The notes under the pieces: model-generated | What the model saw: only the letters and a program-made list of their open reading frames with translations | Databases searched by the model: none | Told to the model about the DNA's origin: nothing | Shown here: one piece after another, positions 2,689 through 35,844 of the stretch | Position numbering within the stretch: position 1 is the first letter of the stretch | Layout: every line of letters begins with the position of its first letter | NCBI GenBank assembly: GCA_030429235.1 | Contig: JAUIDB010000010.1 | Location: 13,334-77,333, forward strand | Reading direction: 5' to 3' | Origin: Thermoanaerobaculia bacterium | GTDB lineage: Bacteria > Acidobacteriota > Thermoanaerobaculia > Multivoradales > JAIOJS01 | Length of the DNA stretch: 64,000 nucleotides | Program-made: the position numbers and the translations under genes

Positions 2689-3672
2689 CTACTTGCGAGG
2701 GGAGGCCTGCAGAACCGTGTTCAGTACCCCGTCGACGACGGTAGCCATCCGTTCATAGTCCAGCGTGTCGGCAGTGTCCGAGGACGTGTGGTAGTTGGGA
2801 TTCCTCATGAAGGCGGTGTCCGTCACCATCACAGCGTCGTATCCGTTGCGCCAGTAGTTGCGGTGGTCGGAAGCATCGATCCCCATTACCACGGGTCCGT
2901 TGAAGCTGAAGACTGGGATGGTGGAAGCGCCTCTGAACGACTTCTTGGCGTGGGCGGTGAGCCAGGCGTCTTCTGAGCGACCCACCACGGCGATGAAGTT
3001 CCCGTGGTCCGGGTAGAAGAGATCCAGGATCCAGCTGGGCCATGGCTGCTCGTCGACGAAGTAGCCGATCATCTCCAGGTTGATCATCCCCCAGATCTCC
3101 TGCTCCTCGGCGCCCAATAGGTCCGCGTGCACTCGGCTCCCCATGAGTGGGGAAGCGTAGAAGGGCGGCTCTTCCAGGGTGAAAGCGACCAGGGTTACCG
3201 GGAGCTTCGGCTGGGTGGCGCCGAGCAGCCGTGCTAGCTCCAGAAGGCCGGCCGTGCCGCTCGCATTGTCGTCAGCCCCTGGGAACTCGCCAAACAGAGT
3301 GAAGGCATCGTAGTGGGCTCCCACCACGACTCTGGGTCCCTCGTGCGGTCCAAACTCGGCGATCACGTTGTGGTAGTCGGATCCGTTCGCCGGGAAGGTC
3401 TGAAGGCGTACTCGGTCCGAGTACTGCTCGAACAGATCGGCGATGTAGTTGGCGGCTCGGGCGAGATTCTCCGGGTTGTCGCTCCCTCTCGGTACGACCT
3501 TCGTGGTCAGGAAGCGAGTGTGGGCCTCTAGAAGGTCAGCCCGCGCCCGATCGTGGGTCAGATCCTCGAAGTGGCCGAGGGAAGGCCGGCGGAGCACGAA
3601 GCAGGCGGTCGCGAGGAGTGTGAGCGCCAGGATTCCGGCAATCGTGAGGATTCGTAGTAGGCGGCGGAGCAC
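2689..3672 (-). CDS. M28 family metallo-aminopeptidase, membrane-anchored or secreted
   Basis: N-terminal hydrophobic anchor. Motifs VVGAHYDA and PGADDNASGTAGLLELARLL are typical of peptidase M28. Confidence 0.85.
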   Translation of the reverse strand: MLRRLLRILTIAGILALTLLATACFVLRRPSLGHFEDLTHDRARADLLEAHTRFLTTKVVPRGSDNPENLARAANYIADLFEQYSDRVRLQTFPANGSDYHNVIAEFGPHEGPRVVVGAHYDAFTLFGEFPGADDNASGTAGLLELARLLGATQPKLPVTLVAFTLEEPPFYASPLMGSRVHADLLGAEEQEIWGMINLEMIGYFVDEQPWPSWILDLFYPDHGNFIAVVGRSEDAWLTAHAKKSFRGASTIPVFSFNGPVVMGIDASDHRNYWRNGYDAVMVTDTAFMRNPNYHTSSDTADTLDYERMATVVDGVLNTVLQASPRK

Positions 3673-29596: not shown

Positions 29597-30064
29597 GACT
29601 CTAGAAACGCCGCGGTAGCTTGAAACGCACAGTTGCCTCGACTTCTCGAGCGACCGCCTGAACCGTCGGGTTCCAAGAGTCGTACCCGACGGCAGTGGTT
29701 GAAGTTCCAGGTCAGATGTGACCCGTGTGGGCAGGTCTGTGTCCTGGCGTCGCGGAGGTTGGAGCGTTGAGGTTCGCTGGCGGGTCTTCGGGCACTCGTC
29801 AGCTCAGTTCGTCAGCTCAACCGAGTCCGCGGAGCGCTCGATCGCCGACGAACGTCGTGACGCTGGGTCGCTGAGTTGCGGCCGAGGTGGCAGGGCTCGC
29901 GAAACAGTCGTTTGGCCGTGAGGTGTGCGGTTTCAACCGGATCGTCGTTTCGATGGGTGTACGCGGTCAGATCGACGGTTGGCTGGCGGAGCTCACAGCG
30001 CCGCTCGGTACCCAGATCGGACCTCTCGGAATCGTCGATCTGGTTATTCCTCTAGGAGTTCACA

Positions 30065-32230
30065 GTGAGTACACCACGCCTCGTCTTGCTCGGCAGCCTT
30101 GCCGTCCTCCTCCTCACCACTCCGGCGCTGATGGCTGGGGTCATCACCGTCGACACCGCCCTCGGCACGCGAGTGGACGACATGGGCGATGGCCCCTGCT
30201 CCTTCAAGGAGGCCCTGGCGAATGCCTTCGGGTCGATGCAGCAGTTCGACGATTGCGAGGACCCCGGGATGGCGCCCCACACCATCGTGTTCACGGGGGC
30301 CTTCGTGATCAATATGGACGATACCGGCTCGATCGCGAACGTGGTGAACGAACTGACCATTCAGGGGCCGGTGGTTTTGGACGGAAACAATCAGATGCAC
30401 GGGGGATTCCTCCTCGATGCGGCCAGTTCGGCCATCCTCACCGTCAACCAGGTGACGTTTCAGGACAACGGCGCGAGCGCGATCAACGTGCGGGACAGCG
30501 CCACGCTGACGGTGAACGCGAGCGTCTTCGACAACAACCAGGCCAACAACGGAGGCGCGATCCAGGCCGGAGGTAGCGGTTCGGTGACGGTCAATCTGTC
30601 GAACTTCACCCGCAACGATGCCACCTTCTTCGGCGGGGCGATCTTCAAGGGCAATGGGTGCGAACTGTTCGTCAGCGGCTCCAACTTCGGCGGACCGATG
30701 CTCGGTAACGAGGCCGACCAGGGGGGAGCGATCTACATCGCGGGCGCGGCCACCGGCGAAGGGGTGGTGATCACGGGATCGACGTTCCTCGGGAACTCCT
30801 CCGACGGCACCGATACCAACGACGGGGGTGGGGCGATCTACATCCAGGGCGCGGGGAACGGCTCCTACATCTCGATCTTCGGCGGTGCTTTCGGCTCCTC
30901 GGTGCCGCTGACCGGTAACAGTGCGATGAGCCGCGGTGGAGCGATCTACAACAACGCCACCTCGGGGCTGGTGAACAGCGACCCCACCGACATTCTCGAC
31001 GCGGGGATCATCGGCGTGGAGTTCGTGGGCAACAGCGCCGGTGATCGGGGCGGAGCGATCTACAACCGCGGGTCGATGAATGTCTTCCACGCTACCTTCG
31101 ATGGCAACAGTGCCGTCGGCGGGGGAGCGGTGGCCGACGACCAGCAGATTTCGGGCCGGGAGTTGACGATCTCGAACTCGACCTTCAATGGCAACAGCGC
31201 TTCGGGTGACGGGGGAGGACTCGGCAGCTTCGACTCCGACTCCAACGTGATCCTGCGGAATGTCACCCTCGCTGGGAACAGCGCTTCGACGAGTGGCCGC
31301 GAACTCTTCGCGACCGGCGACATCGACCTTGGCAACGTGCTGATCGCCAACGGGTCGGCCGGCGCCAACTGCGCCGGGGGCGGGACCTTCGTCGACTCGA
31401 TGGGCAACTTGCAGTGGGATCCGACCATGGACACCGGCTGTGGAGCGGCGATCCCCGTGGCTGATCCTCTGCTCGCGGCGCTGACCTTGAATCCGGGGCC
31501 GATCCCGGTCCGCACCATGGCCCTCGGAGCGGGGAGTCCGGCGCTGGGAGCCGGTGTACCGGCGATCTGTTCGGCCCTGCCGGTCTTCATGCTCGACGCT
31601 CGCGGGGTGCCGCGCCCTACCGCCTGTGATAGCGGAGCCTTCGAAGGTGGCGATGCGGCCCGGCTGGTCATCAACGAGATCGACTACGACCAGGGAGGGA
31701 CCGACGATCACGAGTTCATCGAGATCTACAACGGCGGTGCGGCCTCGATCAACCTCGACAACGTCAGTCTGGAGTTGGTGGACGGCAACATGGGGACGGC
31801 GAGTCTGTACGCGCCGTCGCCGATCGACCTGCCCAACGCCGACCTTGGTCCGGGCGAGTACTACGTCGTGTGTGGTCAGACCGGTCTCGGGATTCCGCTG
31901 ATCAACTGCGACCTCGACCTCGCGACCGACGATTTCCTGCAGGACGGCGATCCGGATGCAATCGGACTGCGGCTTTCGGGGCTTCTGATCGACGCCGTGA
32001 GCTACGGTGGCGCCGATACCGGGGCGCCCTACACCGAGACCGCGGGTGCCGGCGACGACCCCGGTGGTACTCCGTTCCTCGGCCTCTCGCGGTTGCCCGA
32101 TGGCGCCGACAGCGATGACAACTCGGCCGACTTTTCGAGCCGTTGTGCCACGCCGAAGGAGGCCAACGTGCCGGACGCGACGTCCTGTTCGATGGTCCCC
32201 GTGGAACTGCTCGGTTTCTCGGTCGAGTAG
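30065..32230 (+). CDS. Secreted parallel beta-helix protein with GGAI-type (polymorphic-membrane-protein-like) repeats and a lamin tail domain (LTD)
   Basis: Signal peptide. More than 8 GGAI(Y/F/Q) repeats (NNGGAIQAG, FFGGAIF, QGGAIYIAG, GGGAIYIQG, RGGAIYNN, RGGAIYNRG). LTD-like segment LVINEIDYDQGGTDDHEFIEIYN...GPGEYYVVCG...DAVSYGG. It ends VPVELLGFSVE. Confidence 0.8.
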   Translation: MSTPRLVLLGSLAVLLLTTPALMAGVITVDTALGTRVDDMGDGPCSFKEALANAFGSMQQFDDCEDPGMAPHTIVFTGAFVINMDDTGSIANVVNELTIQGPVVLDGNNQMHGGFLLDAASSAILTVNQVTFQDNGASAINVRDSATLTVNASVFDNNQANNGGAIQAGGSGSVTVNLSNFTRNDATFFGGAIFKGNGCELFVSGSNFGGPMLGNEADQGGAIYIAGAATGEGVVITGSTFLGNSSDGTDTNDGGGAIYIQGAGNGSYISIFGGAFGSSVPLTGNSAMSRGGAIYNNATSGLVNSDPTDILDAGIIGVEFVGNSAGDRGGAIYNRGSMNVFHATFDGNSAVGGGAVADDQQISGRELTISNSTFNGNSASGDGGGLGSFDSDSNVILRNVTLAGNSASTSGRELFATGDIDLGNVLIANGSAGANCAGGGTFVDSMGNLQWDPTMDTGCGAAIPVADPLLAALTLNPGPIPVRTMALGAGSPALGAGVPAICSALPVFMLDARGVPRPTACDSGAFEGGDAARLVINEIDYDQGGTDDHEFIEIYNGGAASINLDNVSLELVDGNMGTASLYAPSPIDLPNADLGPGEYYVVCGQTGLGIPLINCDLDLATDDFLQDGDPDAIGLRLSGLLIDAVSYGGADTGAPYTETAGAGDDPGGTPFLGLSRLPDGADSDDNSADFSSRCATPKEANVPDATSCSMVPVELLGFSVE

Positions 32231-32322
32231 TCGCAAGATCCTCCGCGCCCGGCACGGAACGCAACCCGCCGTTGTCCGTAGGGTATTCTGAGGGAAACGA
32301 GCCACCCGGTCTCGGAGGATCC

Positions 32323-32896: not shown

Positions 32897-33334
32897 CTAC
32901 TGCTCGACCTGGATCGACTTCAAGAAGGCCACCAGATCGTCGATCTTGGCCGAGATCTCTTCGTCGTCGGCCTCCTCGAAGGCGACCTTGAAGGCGTTGC
33001 CCCAGACCGGCATGTCCGGGCTACCGTGCGCCGGGCGGCGCTCGCGGCCGTCGATGATCTCGTGGATCGTCTGGGTGGGAAACTCGCCGTCGTAGCGAGT
33101 GACGATCCCGGTCAGGTCGGCCGGTTTGGGCTCGAGATACTCGGCCACCGGACCGTCTCCTTCACCCTGCTTCCCGTGGCAACTACCGCAGTAGTTCACG
33201 TAGGTGGCGTGTCCACGGACGGCCGAAGCGGACTCCATCTCGTCGGCGCCGACCGGGCCGCTGGCGACCCAGCTCCCGATCCCTACCACCACGGCCACGA
33301 TCATCAGGATCCAACGCGTCGTGCGAGCTCCCAT
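32897..33334 (-). CDS. Membrane-anchored or periplasmic class I c-type cytochrome
   Basis: Heme-binding CGSCH (CxxCH) in YVNYCGSCHGKQGEGDGP, and a distal Met in SPDMPVWG. Start re-set to ATG 33334, which has an AGGAG RBS. Confidence 0.8.
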   Translation of the reverse strand: MGARTTRWILMIVAVVVGIGSWVASGPVGADEMESASAVRGHATYVNYCGSCHGKQGEGDGPVAEYLEPKPADLTGIVTRYDGEFPTQTIHEIIDGRERRPAHGSPDMPVWGNAFKVAFEEADDEEISAKIDDLVAFLKSIQVEQ

Positions 33335-33482
33335 CTCTGATCTCCTCTGGGTTGATTGTGGTGGATCTAGGATACACCCCTCCTGCCTCCCGTGGGATTG
33401 CACGGGCGAGGGTGGAGCTGACTTGGCAGGGTCGCCGTCGCGTTGCTATCGTCGCGGTACACAACCGAGGAGCCGAGAGTGG

Positions 33483-33719
33483 ATGCATAGCAGCCGATTG
33501 GAGTTCTGGGAGCGCTTGACACGCTGCTTCGAGGAGGACGAACTGCAGATCCTCGTGACTGGCACGACCAGCCCGGCGGTCAAGGTCGTCCACCGTCCCA
33601 CGGGGATCGAGACCACCTGCGACCAGCACAACTCGCAGATTTTCAATCGGTCGCAGGCGGCTCTCGACCTCCTGCAGCGGCTCTTCCGGGAGTCGGTGGC
33701 CGAGGACCCGGTCGCGTGA
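33483..33719 (+). CDS. 78-aa RF-1 (class I release factor / peptidyl-tRNA hydrolase) domain protein lacking the GGQ loop
   Basis: VKVVHRPTGIETTCDQHNSQIFNRSQAALDLL aligns by eye with the RF1/RF2 segment [27 protein letters not shown]. The preceding GGQ-containing ~10 aa are absent. GAGGAG lies upstream of ATG 33483. Confidence 0.5.
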   Translation: MHSSRLEFWERLTRCFEEDELQILVTGTTSPAVKVVHRPTGIETTCDQHNSQIFNRSQAALDLLQRLFRESVAEDPVA

Positions 33720-33801
33720 ACCCCCGGCTCGAGGTTCACCAACCCAGCCAACAGAAGACCACCTTGGTGCCGGCGAGCATCACTTCCGAGAGGACCTACC
33801 C

Positions 33802-34590
33802 ATGACGGACCCCTTCATCCCCCGCGTCGGCGGCGTGCTGAGCGCCGACATCGCCGTTCCCGACCACGAGCGAGAGGTGCGCTTCTACTCTCGGGTCCTC
33901 ACCACCGGCGAGAACCCGTTGTGGCGCGACGACCTGATGAACAACCGGGGTATGCCAGTCATCGGTCTCGGCGCGTACAGCGAAGAGTACGGTGATCTCC
34001 CCTTGCAGTGGATGCCCCACATCCAGGTCGAGGACGTTGCCGCCTGCGTGGCGCGGGTTCTCGAACGGGGTGGAAGTGAAGTGATGCATGCCAAGGACGA
34101 CGACGGGGCCAGCCAGTGGGCGGTGCTCCTGGACCCGAACGGCGCGGCGTTTGGGGTCATGCCAGTGGTATCGGTCGACGCGATGCCGCCGACAGACCCC
34201 TCCGCCAGTTCCGGTCCCGTGGGGTGTATCTCGTGGCTCGATCTGACGGTTGCCGATGCCTCGACCACGCGGGACTTCTATCAGCACGTCGTGGGTTGGG
34301 AAGTGCAGGACGTGGCGATGCGCGACGGCGAGGAGTCCTATGCCGACTACAACATGCTGGGGGGCGATGGATCCCCGGCCGCGGGGGTCTGCCACGCTCG
34401 GGGTGGCAATCTCGGCCTGCCGTCGGTGTGGTTGCTCTACCTGCCGGTAGGGGATCTCGCCGAGAGTCTACGCCGGGTGGAAGAGGAAGGGGGGAGCGTG
34501 GTCAAGGCGTCTCGAGGCAAGGACGGGGAGTACTCCTGGGCGGTCATCGAGGACCCGGTGGGAGTGCACCTGGCGCTGATGGCGGGATAG
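33802..34590 (+). CDS. VOC (glyoxalase/bleomycin-resistance/dioxygenase) family protein with two tandem domains
   Basis: Two similar halves (ADIAVPDHEREVRFYSRVL... and LDLTVADASTTRDFYQHVVGWEV...), each ending in a G..F.V.DP/DPVG-type strand typical of VOC folds. Confidence 0.75.
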   Translation: MTDPFIPRVGGVLSADIAVPDHEREVRFYSRVLTTGENPLWRDDLMNNRGMPVIGLGAYSEEYGDLPLQWMPHIQVEDVAACVARVLERGGSEVMHAKDDDGASQWAVLLDPNGAAFGVMPVVSVDAMPPTDPSASSGPVGCISWLDLTVADASTTRDFYQHVVGWEVQDVAMRDGEESYADYNMLGGDGSPAAGVCHARGGNLGLPSVWLLYLPVGDLAESLRRVEEEGGSVVKASRGKDGEYSWAVIEDPVGVHLALMAG

Positions 34591-34625: not shown

Positions 34626-35303
34626 TCAGCTCGGGGTCGGCGCGGAAGCCGGGGGCCACAGGTTGCGTCCCAGCTTGGTCGACAGCCACTCCAGGCCGCC
34701 GCGCCAGCCCGTGAAGCGAATCCCGGTCTCGACGCGGGCGAGCAGTACGCAGCCTTCGTCGGCTTCGGTGGCGGGTCGGTGGCTCGAACCCGCCTCGTAC
34801 CGCACGAAGTCGCCCGCCTCGACCAGGAGCTGGTCGTCGCGATAGCCGCCGGTGAGGACCAGGGTCTCCTCGGAGCCGAGGTGCTGGTGGGTCGGGAAAC
34901 GCCGGTCGGCACCGGCTCGAGCCGCCACCAGGAAGTACTCGTCCTCGCGGGCCAGAATCGCTACCTCCACCCCCCGAGTCAAAGGCGATCGCCAGCGCGG
35001 CGAACCCTGCCAGGGGAGGCTACCCGTCCGCCACTCGCGAGGTAGAGGCAGCCCGCCATCGGTGGTGCCCGGCGAGTCGTCGAGGCTCCTTGCCAGGCGC
35101 TCCCAGATCGTCGGTGGCGGCGCGGCTTCCCGAACTCCTTCGAGCCAATGCTGTCCGGGGGCTTGCAGCGCGTCCAGTTCCGAGCGGCAGGCGGCGCAGA
35201 GATCGAGATGGCAGTCGATCAGAAAGCGGCGCGGCAGGTCGACCTGGCCGGCGGAGTAGTCGATCAGTAGATCCGCAGAGGGGTGGTGGCGGGGGATCCT
35301 CAT
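34626..35303 (-). CDS. chrR: ChrR-type anti-sigma factor (N-terminal zinc-binding domain plus C-terminal cupin)
   Basis: HHPSADLLIDYSAGQVDLPRRFLIDCHLDLCAACRSEL matches the ChrR N-terminal HxxxCxxC pattern. Cupin-like C-terminus. It starts 1 nt after the ECF sigma stop. Confidence 0.8.
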   Translation of the reverse strand: MRIPRHHPSADLLIDYSAGQVDLPRRFLIDCHLDLCAACRSELDALQAPGQHWLEGVREAAPPPTIWERLARSLDDSPGTTDGGLPLPREWRTGSLPWQGSPRWRSPLTRGVEVAILAREDEYFLVAARAGADRRFPTHQHLGSEETLVLTGGYRDDQLLVEAGDFVRYEAGSSHRPATEADEGCVLLARVETGIRFTGWRGGLEWLSTKLGRNLWPPASAPTPS

Positions 35304-35304
35304 C

Positions 35305-35844
35305 CTATCGATTCTCCAGGTGTTGTCTCAGTCGGTTCAGGCCGCTCCGAACCCTCGACTTGAGGGTGCCGAGAGGGAGCTCGAGACGGCGCGCCGTCTC
35401 CTCGTAGGTCAGCCCGCCGAAGTAGGCGAGCTCGAGGGCGCTGCGCTGCCCGTCGTCCAGCTGACCGAGAGCCTGTACCACAGCGAGACGGGTCTCGAGA
35501 GAGAGCCGCAAGGGTGGTTGGATCGGCTCCGATTCCAAGGCGCTGGTGGGACGACGTCCCTGGTAGCGCAGGCGATCGAACCACTTGTTGCGGGCGATGG
35601 TGAAGAGCCAGCCGGCGGCGACTCCGCGCCGGGCATCGAAGGTCGTGGCTCGGTCCCAGACGGCGAGAAAGACGTCCTGGAGCAGGTCGTCGACGTCAGT
35701 CTTCGCTGCACCGAGGCTGCTCAGGTAGGCGGCGATGCGACCGCCGTACCGCTCGTAGAAGGTCGCAAAGGCGTGGCGGTCGCCGCTGGCGACGCGTCGC
35801 AGCAGCTCCTGGTCATCGATCGTCGGTGTGGGCAAGGGAATCAC
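35305..35844 (-). CDS. ECF-type RNA polymerase sigma-70 family factor
   Basis: Region 2 (DVDDLLQDVFLAVWDRATTFD...WLFTIARNKWFDRLR) and region 4 (ALELAYFGGLTYEETARRLELPLGTLKSRVRSGL). GTG start with a GGAGA RBS. Confidence 0.85.
   Translation of the reverse strand: MIPLPTPTIDDQELLRRVASGDRHAFATFYERYGGRIAAYLSSLGAAKTDVDDLLQDVFLAVWDRATTFDARRGVAAGWLFTIARNKWFDRLRYQGRRPTSALESEPIQPPLRLSLETRLAVVQALGQLDDGQRSALELAYFGGLTYEETARRLELPLGTLKSRVRSGLNRLRQHLENR

Follow-up and report, generated by a model that had tools for sequence, protein, structure and literature searches.

A small bacterial gene that probably encodes a stand-alone release-factor domain 3 lacking the GGQ motif, and its scattered family of homologues

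The open reading frame at 33483..33719 of the window, by which we mean the whole stretch of 64,000 nucleotides analysed here, encodes a 78-aa protein that we take, with a probability of roughly 0.9, to be a dead, stand-alone release-factor domain 3 and a member of a family of such proteins. The whole product would correspond to the peptidyl-hydrolase domain of the release factors (domain 3 of RF1, RF2 and PrfH), in which the GGQ loop would have been lost and shortened and an N-terminal helix gained to leave a compact alpha-beta-beta-beta-alpha module. The homologues recovered with it, some 30 small proteins of one common architecture, make up a family of single-domain, catalytically dead derivatives of bacterial release factors that is rare and, it seems, has not been described before.

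The reading frame is a genuine protein-coding gene. Its GC content by codon position (0.62/0.43/0.87) has the same periodicity as that of the flanking genes, and third-position GC in frame 0 is 0.83 over codons 1-30 and 0.92 over codons 31-78. An earlier note on this DNA, made from the letters alone, had quoted its translation exactly. The start at ATG 33483 is fixed by the family alignment introduced below (A3). A longer in-frame reading from GTG 33204 (171 aa) overlaps the cytochrome c gene and does not improve the match to release factors, and the alignment favours ATG 33483. The gene, the signals around it and its neighbours are as follows.

33483..33719, forward strand: coding sequence of the 78-aa GGQ-less mini release-factor-domain protein (P0001), from ATG 33483 to TGA 33719, stop included
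33467..33472, forward strand: GAGGAG, Shine-Dalgarno-like, 10 nt 5' of the ATG, by reading of the sequence
33423..33452, forward strand: sigma-70-like promoter match, TTGGCA-18 nt-(TG)TATCGT, a consensus match only (1 site against 0.1 expected in shuffles)
33716..33739, forward strand: perfect 7-bp inverted repeat GTGAACC/GGTTCAC across the stop codon, with no T-run and not an attC site
32897-33334, reverse strand: cytochrome c gene, the upstream neighbour
33802-34590: two-domain VOC/glyoxalase gene, 82 nt downstream

The GAGGAG ribosome-binding site named in the earlier note is present, and the frame does stand alone, flanked by the cytochrome c and VOC genes that were given as its neighbours. 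The flank carrying the inverted repeat folds no better than shuffled sequence (z +0.9). The wider surroundings are ordinary chromosomal ones, with sulfatases, an ECF sigma/anti-sigma pair, sigma-54 regulators and Omp85, and a scan of the whole window against Rfam gave no match.

Comparison with curated models shows a genuine similarity of the product to class I release factors, which for the single sequence stays below threshold. As a single sequence it matches the Pfam RF-1 model (PF00472) with an E value of 5.6e-6, residues 28-70 aligning to positions 29-72 of the 116 in the profile, although the 26.7 bits scored lie below the gathering cut-off of 35. The NCBIfam models prfB, prfA and prfH match with E values from about 1e-6 (prfB and prfA) to 7e-4, with prfA and prfB scores of 27-28 bits against cut-offs of 370-423. 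In a phmmer search of the PDB the best match is T. thermophilus RF1 (E 8.6e-7), with 'GTTSPAVKVVHRPTGIETTCDQHNSQIFNR' aligned to a 30-residue RF1 segment. For the family as a whole the homology becomes unambiguous: 22 of the 29 aligned members match Pfam RF-1 at E<=0.01 (best E 1.7e-7), and the profile built from A3 finds T. thermophilus RF1 with E 8.8e-13 and RF2 with E 2.4e-12. We therefore regard homology to the RF-1 domain, which the earlier note had proposed, as secure on sequence comparison, although the single sequence does not reach the curated Pfam threshold. Four elements can be laid out along the protein.

33495..33521, forward strand (codons 5-13): family-specific N-terminal helix (consensus LLxRLExCF), predicted by the model as H5-13, with no counterpart in the RF-1 match; the window protein has W9 and T13
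33543..33557, forward strand (codons 21-25): predicted strand 1, LQILV (E21-25 of the model), equivalent to the 'RIDTF' strand before the GGQ loop in release factors
33558..33578, forward strand (codons 26-32): shortened, degenerate remnant of the GGQ loop, TGTTSPA, without glutamine, from the loop alignment
33564..33692, forward strand (codons 28-70): similarity to the core of RF-1 / class I release-factor domain 3 (strands 2 and 3 and the helix equivalent to release-factor helix alpha7), from Pfam, NCBIfam, the PDB, the model and Foldseek

The single-sequence Pfam and NCBIfam matches begin at residue 28, directly past the position where GGQ is expected. No GGQ occurs in the in-frame translation, as had already been noticed, and the catalytic position is without glutamine. 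Between the strand-1 position at residue 23 (the threonine of IDT) and the 'AV' of strand 2 at residue 32 there are 8 residues in the product and 16 in RF1, so that some 8 residues around SGxGGQHV are missing; the earlier note was right that the loop is shortened, and its count of about 10 absent residues is near to the 8 or so of the alignment. The distal, C-terminal half of the loop is still recognisable ('GTTSPAV' against 'NTTDSAV' in RF1). In the family-profile alignments the 'GQGV' of RF1 is placed as an insertion relative to the profile, and the profile segment 'eegEietLv' is aligned with 'NMDEIRIDV' of RF1.

An assembly or sequencing indel could conceal a normal GGQ-containing ArfB-like gene, and an off-frame 'PGGQ' at 33572-33583 (GGQ at 33575-33583) does fall precisely at the loop position, overlapping the end of the remnant. 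The off-frame motif is a by-product of the codons CCG-GCG-GTC-AAG, which read P-A-V-K in frame, and the same off-frame GGQ recurs in a homologue (L009) at its A-V-K codons. Its flanks are unlike those of release factors, whereas the N-terminal part in frame 0 agrees with the family consensus, frame 0 is backed by the third-position periodicity on both sides of the loop, and no basic tail follows downstream. An identical protein is found on contigs from independent samples, with L6S as the one variant, and over 20 kb the window is matched at 100% identity by a contig from another run. The earlier note had considered that a GGQ-bearing piece in another frame would indicate an assembly indel; an off-frame GGQ exists, but it is a coincidence of codon usage in a sequence that was assembled identically from independent samples, and the chance that a normal gene is hidden here is close to nil.

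The relatives of the protein came into view by degrees of search sensitivity. A word-indexed protein search with the single sequence returned only the query and the L6S variant, while exhaustive phmmer against 1.84 billion representatives gave 21 matches at E<1e-3, mostly of 68-110 aa and aligned over nearly their full length, with E values from the product to the members of 1.9e-10 to 1e-3; at the top of this range stands P0003, a protein of 76 aa with 46% identity (E 1.9e-10). Two profile searches (24 and 18 clusters) added further members and recovered P0001 itself at 95-101 bits. Taken together, the HMMER scan and the two profile searches yield about 30 small proteins of 70-92 aa, and the group of poorly understood release-factor-like small proteins suspected in the earlier note thus takes concrete form. 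The alignment A3, of 29 sequences, defines what we call the mini-RF family. Its architecture consists of an N-terminal helix LLxRLExCF, a strand GEIETL, a variable loop without GGQ, and the segments AVKVxHRPTGxE and SQxxN(K/R)xxALxxLLxxL. The columns of N55, A59 and L67 are invariant in A3 and those of H37, G41, E43 and Q52 nearly so, and the L9, E13, C15 and F16 columns are near-invariant in A3 and A4. Outside the loop the conserved positions of release factors are nearly all kept (AV+V.H.PTG, SQ..NK..A). Within it GGQ is found in 0 of the 29 members, and the length varies from about 5 to 18 residues; where the loop is long it reads PGxG(L/V)xV, visibly a degenerate SGxGGQHV. With W9, T13, I23 and F54 the window protein diverges from the other members, and its loop is in the shortest class.

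The family is sparsely distributed. Among the GTDB species-representative genomes there is no member, the two matches being an ordinary RF1 and a PrfH-like gene, and a motif scan of metagenomes gave 80 loci of which 78 are canonical release factors, the family being represented only by L013 (the P0004 contig) and L014. Searches of viral contigs, IMG/VR, INPHARED phages and PLSDB plasmids gave no member. An Acinetobacter match labelled as plasmid turned out to be chromosomal prfA.

Codon alignment of the six members for which DNA was available indicates that the family is under purifying selection. The least saturated pair, P0004 and P0032 (71% identity), gives dN 0.17, dS 1.24 and dN/dS 0.13; the other computable pairs give 0.14-0.52 with dS saturated, and one pair is too saturated to compute. 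These values bear on the possibility that the gene is a decaying, functionless remnant of a duplicated prfA, prfB, prfH or arfB, a reading that the earlier note had offered in the form of a decaying ArfB-like gene. The protein is indeed short and without the catalytic motif, it departs from the family consensus at W9, T13 and I23 and has the shortest class of loop, and one homologue (L014/P0016) is apparently frameshifted. Set against this are about 30 intact, collinear homologues with a common start and end, to which L014/P0016 is the one exception; the dN/dS range of 0.13-0.52; the GC3 of 0.87; the gene's own Shine-Dalgarno and promoter-like sites; a confidently folded model; and an identical sequence in independent samples with the sole variant L6S. 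Decay is thus highly improbable, and together dN/dS, the intact collinear members and the identical independent assembly lead us to reject both this and the assembly-error reading. In L014/P0016, moving the frame by 1 nt after 'NKS' brings back the consensus 'ALLRLMDRL'.

The AlphaFold2 model, built with 22 family sequences, has a mean pLDDT of 90 and a pTM of 0.77, and its elements (H5-13, E21-25, E33-37, E42-46 and H52-74) follow one another as alpha-beta-beta-beta-alpha. As modelled, the product has the three-stranded sheet and long helix of release-factor domain 3. The first 47 Foldseek matches in the PDB are all release-factor domain 3 or GGQ domains (RF1, RF2, mtRF1a, mtRF1, PrfH and C12orf65), with TM scores of 0.56-0.73 except for 5mdy at 0.45; the top matches, to domain 3 of RF1, RF2, mtRF1a and PrfH, reach 0.66-0.73. 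Overlay on domain 3 of RF1/RF2 gives a TM score of 0.70 and an rmsd of 2.2 A over 71 columns. From the model and these matches the product would be essentially one release-factor domain 3 with a new capping helix. Double-stranded RNA-binding domains appear as distant neighbours at ranks 48-49 of the Foldseek list, and this is one of the observations that could point to a scaffold re-purposed away from translation, in which a stable, dsRBD-like alpha-beta3-alpha fold has taken on a new RNA-binding, ligand-binding or regulatory role through E13, C15, F16, E20 and E43. Only this family has the N-terminal helix and a number of polar, near-invariant residues that release factors lack, and the gene contexts described below are unrelated to translation. 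We nevertheless consider such a change of role unlikely: the release-factor core positions outside the loop are nearly all retained, the acidic charge of the protein speaks against generic RNA binding, and no positive evidence points to a specific alternative ligand.

Measured against RF1 and RF2, the product shares with their domain 3 (PF00472) sequence homology, the same fold and the retained motifs AV(K/R)VxH-PTG and SQxxN(K/R)xxA, but differs in having an extra N-terminal helix and in lacking GGQ from a loop that is 8 residues longer in RF1/RF2. Those factors are proteins of about 350-370 aa with domains 1 and 2/4 and a PxT or SPF codon-recognition motif, none of which is found in the 78 aa here; the frame is bounded by the stop at 33717-33719 and the upstream intergenic region, and without domains 1, 2 and 4 the protein has no means of codon recognition. 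In standing alone without codon-recognition domains the protein resembles ArfB (YaeJ), ICT1 (mL62) and C12orf65. ArfB, however, retains GGQ and in addition possesses an inserted helix and a basic C-terminal tail by which it is anchored in the mRNA channel (PMC6514570; PMC7427801), and the mini-RF family is without all three. The C-terminus of the product reads RESVAEDPVA, its net charge is -4 and its pI 5.2 (family median 5.3), compared with a pI of 11.5 for the ArfB-like P0038. In the model a turn of 4 residues connects strand 33-37 with strand 42-46, without the alpha-i helix of ArfB/ICT1. The family profile finds no ArfB/ICT1 entry at E 1e-3 in the PDB or at E 0.01 in NCBIfam, where prfA, prfB and prfH are its only matches. 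Judged by profile similarity, ArfB is more distant from the family than RF1, RF2 and PrfH are, and the ArfB-like affiliation suggested in the earlier note is not supported. PrfH (RFH), the partner of RtcB2, is likewise an accessory, horizontally spread release-factor paralogue, and the family profile matches it at E 3.3e-9. PrfH keeps GGQ and a codon-recognition-like domain, though, and is operonic with RtcB (PMC6514570), whereas the mini-RF family has neither the motif nor the decoding-like domain nor an RtcB neighbour.

Loss of the catalytic glutamine with retention of the domain has precedents outside bacteria. The plastid protein PrfB3 is a eukaryotic, GGQ-less derivative of the bacterial release-factor domain. 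MRPS35 is likewise a eukaryotic inactive derivative of this domain (PMC6514570), and ticks have an extra ICT1 without GGQ (PMC3472500). Like the protein described here, these three have a bacterial-type hydrolase domain from which the catalytic glutamine was lost and which has been retained in a non-catalytic capacity, but they are eukaryotic organellar proteins, larger and with extra domains, while the window protein is bacterial and one-domain and its family is mobile. The most complete survey of how release factors evolved, from 2019, names four versions of this hydrolase domain in bacteria (RF1, RF2, ArfB and PrfH), with the glutamine retained in the two accessory ones (ArfB and PrfH) and inactive derivatives only in eukaryotic organelles (PMC6514570). 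Our full-text literature search for bacterial release-factor domains without GGQ, and for integron cassettes that carry release factors, yielded no relevant report. A further parallel, by analogy only and not by homology, is offered by the GGQ-less aeRF1-type factors Dom34/Pelota (PMC6514570) and Balon (baeRF-1; PMC10901736), which occupy the ribosomal A site. They too are release-factor homologues without GGQ and with a variable loop, and Burroughs and Aravind describe the length of the catalytic loop as unconstrained in catalytically inactive aeRF1-type domains (PMC6514570). They differ from the mini-RF proteins in their aeRF1 RNase-H-like fold, multi-domain build, delivery by EF-Tu or Hbs1 and links to hibernation-factor operons.

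Since the glutamine is missing from every member and the loop is free to vary in length, we infer that peptidyl-tRNA hydrolysis is impossible for these proteins and that they would act by binding. Our best guess is a binding-only role at the domain-3 docking site of the 50S subunit, with a role as a protein decoy nearly as likely. The likeliest target would be the surface normally engaged by domain 3 on the A-site side of the 50S peptidyl-transferase cleft, where the protein could be a non-catalytic occupant or a competitor of RF1, RF2 or ArfB, and the outcome might be accessory modulation of termination or rescue under stress or conflict. We hold this account, of a dead domain-3 protein that binds the docking site as occupant or competitor, tentatively and at somewhat less than even odds, although it is the best explanation we have; the ribosome-binding mechanism itself is rather doubtful. 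The ribosome is favoured as target because the release-factor positions outside the loop, which are consistent with a kept docking surface or with the fold, are nearly all retained, and because, to our knowledge, every characterised member of the release-factor hydrolase domain superfamily works on the 50S A site. The occupation of the A site by the glutamine-less aeRF1 homologues Dom34 and Balon argues in the same direction (PMC6514570; PMC10901736). Several properties weaken the case. The protein has no known anchor in the form of codon-recognition domains or an ArfB-type basic tail, a lack that weakens the non-catalytic ribosome-binding factor considered in the earlier note, and it is acidic, as is the family at the median. 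ArfB needs its C-terminal tail for ribosome binding, the essential residues lying mostly there and the N-terminal domain alone being inactive (PMC7427801). The loop of the window protein, in the shortest class, could not extend as far as the peptidyl-transferase centre, the extra helix at the N-terminus might collide with the ribosome, the conserved residues may merely maintain the fold, and no translation-related neighbour is conserved.

The gene is horizontally mobile and scattered over unrelated genomic contexts. Across the loci examined there is no neighbouring gene common to the family, no RtcB gene and no conserved translation-related neighbour. Two homologue lineages are integron gene cassettes flanked by attC. 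In the first (L003), the P0026 gene occupies 1185-1424 and has an attC site on either side, at 1086-1177 and 1468-1552, the upstream one reading GGCTAAC-CAG-CCGTTGCAG...CTGAACGG-CAGTATC-GTTGGAC and the downstream one running from GTCCAAC to GTTGGAC; the cassette opens with bases complementary to the R'' box in its own attC, and four attC sites occur in 2.5 kb. In the second (L005), an attC at 2597-2712 precedes the P0004 gene, an R'' box GCCTAAC overlaps the stop codon of that gene, and at least 5 attC-like sites occur in 9 kb (none in shuffles), interspersed with toxin-antitoxin cassettes (ParE twice, and BrnT/MqsA-like). The attC sites of P0026 and P0004 fold as imperfect hairpins (z -3.5 and -4.9, respectively). 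P0026 and P0004 thus resemble other integron cassettes in that each is a single gene bounded by attC, with toxin-antitoxin cassettes in the same arrays. The copy in the window is no integron gene cassette: near the gene in the window and in L001 there are 0 attC-like sites and the flanks do not fold, and the window copy has its own promoter-like site and ordinary chromosomal genes around it. Other members are found within a long same-strand array of small orphan genes (L008), in a conserved three-gene operon with an SNase-like protein and a small membrane-like protein (L009 and L096), in 4-nt overlap with the preceding gene (L012), directly after three tRNA genes (L098), or next to genes for TIR, PARG and ADP-ribosylglycohydrolase. 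There is no conserved partner gene, the coupled upstream genes of L009 and L012 being mutually unrelated.

These contexts bear most directly on the decoy possibility, according to which the protein would mimic domain 3 and sequester a protein that recognises it, for instance a toxin or an effector directed against release factors or the termination machinery, in the manner of an immunity protein or antitoxin and with no binding to the ribosome. An acidic, tail-less protein would suit such a role, as would the sporadic and mobile distribution of the family, its presence in the toxin-antitoxin-rich integron arrays of L005, its occurrence among small orphan genes arrayed at length on one strand, with a weakly Imm10-like one in L008, and the adjoining TIR, PARG and ADP-ribosylglycohydrolase genes. 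By itself, however, this possibility is on the unlikely side, given that no partner gene is conserved over the family, that PADLOC gives no match for the protein or its coupled neighbours, that our literature search found no toxin aimed at release-factor domain 3, and that the window copy sits in an ordinary chromosomal neighbourhood. In its most far-reaching form, binding at the docking site would mean a mobile, sometimes integron-borne dead domain at the A-site face of the 50S peptidyl-transferase cleft, which blocks or tunes RF1, RF2 or ArfB, or antibiotics or peptides that act there. In the bacterial lineage such a domain would match Dom34 and Balon in a minimal, one-domain form, and it would represent a novel class of accessory modulators of translation that travel as gene cassettes; we put this proposal forward as improbable in its entirety.

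The gene described here shows that bacteria too keep a glutamine-less one-domain version of the release-factor fold under selection, moved as an accessory gene and in two lineages as an integron cassette. If the members bind the ribosome, no smaller A-site factor would be known, and they would offer a way into the modulation of termination or rescue; if they bind a protein, they would point to an effector, so far unknown, that is aimed at the termination machinery. Either way, the alignment and the family name can be given to orphan proteins that are now labelled 'release factor A' or 'release factor-like', the public labels of members being at present 'peptide chain release factor-like protein' (NCBI, in an Acidobacteriota MAG), 'protein subunit release factor A' (JGI) or hypothetical.

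The homologous locus L003 (positions 1-2562; ENA ERZ27257208 k141_2658397), which carries the release-factor-like (RF-like) family member P0026, is a textbook integron cassette array. Its four attC sites are near-identical, are each about 85-150 nt long, and separate single small orphan genes encoding a TPR protein, a 102-aa protein, the RF-like protein P0026 and an 85-aa protein. The L003 genes are also present on a 111.9-kb JGI contig (3300047160), where at least 14 small genes lie on one strand with similar spacing. A second integron-type array, with an attC family unlike that of L003, occupies positions 900-8800 of L005 (ENA ERZ869903 NODE_2233), the locus of family member P0004, and includes toxin-antitoxin cassettes of ParE type and BrnT/MqsA-like type. 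The two attC families read as follows.

L003: R'' RYYYAAC, L'' CCGTTGCAG ... L' CTGAACGG, R' GTTRRRY
L005: GCCCAAC...GGCGCTGAAGCTG...CAGCTTAxCGCC...GTTRGGC

Of the attC site 3' of the L005 RF-like gene, only the first half is found (2975-3040). A ParE/antitoxin pair in inverted orientation comes next, and this arrangement suggests that the site was rearranged within itself.

The only recurrent neighbourhood found for the RF-like family is a conserved three-gene unit, present at L009 374-1477 and L096 441-1609 (NCBI assemblies GCA_024449665.1 and GCA_024449835.1), in which the genes of the L009 copy overlap by 4 and 8 nt. Its products are:

177-aa protein resembling SNase (Pfam SNase, E 8.8e-5)
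84-aa RF-like protein
104-108-aa hydrophobic protein

At L098 (47-926; JGI 3300023368) three clustered tRNA genes (Ser-tga, Ser-gct, Arg-acg), together with a strong hairpin resembling a terminator, are found directly 5' of the RF-like gene of P0018.

As called, the frame of family member P0016 (L014 1556-2100; Ga0124853_1506525) is missing the C-terminal helix. Moving the frame by +1 after '...QIRNKS' gives back 'ALLRLMDRLIGL', and no stop then interrupts the shifted frame for over 100 additional codons; the alternatives are an indel from sequencing, a copy in decay, or a fusion. In the window, positions 33575-33583 spell an off-frame 'GGQ' that coincides with the P-A-V-K codons, precisely at the point from which the genuine GGQ loop has disappeared. 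For the window alone this would be expected by chance at ~0.65%, and the high-GC codon choice GCG-GTC-AAG accounts for the motif. The same off-frame GGQ occurs in frame 2 of the homologous L009 gene, a second family member.

Five very small RF-1-domain proteins (P0014, P0015, P0051, P0038 and P0050) are not members of the RF-like family, and their best match is PHROGs phrog_20323, a phage family that spans 73 positions and consists of RF-1 domain proteins. P0015 (68 aa) and P0051 (76 aa) are without GGQ and have release-factor-like N-termini, not the LLxRLExCF helix. GGQ is likewise absent from P0014 (93 aa), which has a CxxC...CxxC motif at its end. Both GGQ and a basic tail are retained in P0038 (115 aa) and P0050 (133 aa), which from their sequences appear to be missing the inserted helix of ArfB.

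Two further features were noted around the RF-like ORF in the window.

34626-35844, minus strand: ECF sigma factor gene (Sigma70_r2/r4_2) directly followed by a gene for a Cupin_7 protein (ChrR-like anti-sigma)
30044-32305, minus strand, and 30065-32230, plus strand: a pair of ORFs, each longer than 720 aa, in near-total overlap

The sigma factor stop and the Cupin_7 start are 1 nt apart, and the pair converges with the VOC gene next after the RF-like ORF. Gene calls on the identical contig assign a 721-aa LTD-domain protein to the plus strand of the overlap, and the minus-strand ORF therefore looks like a high-GC shadow ORF.
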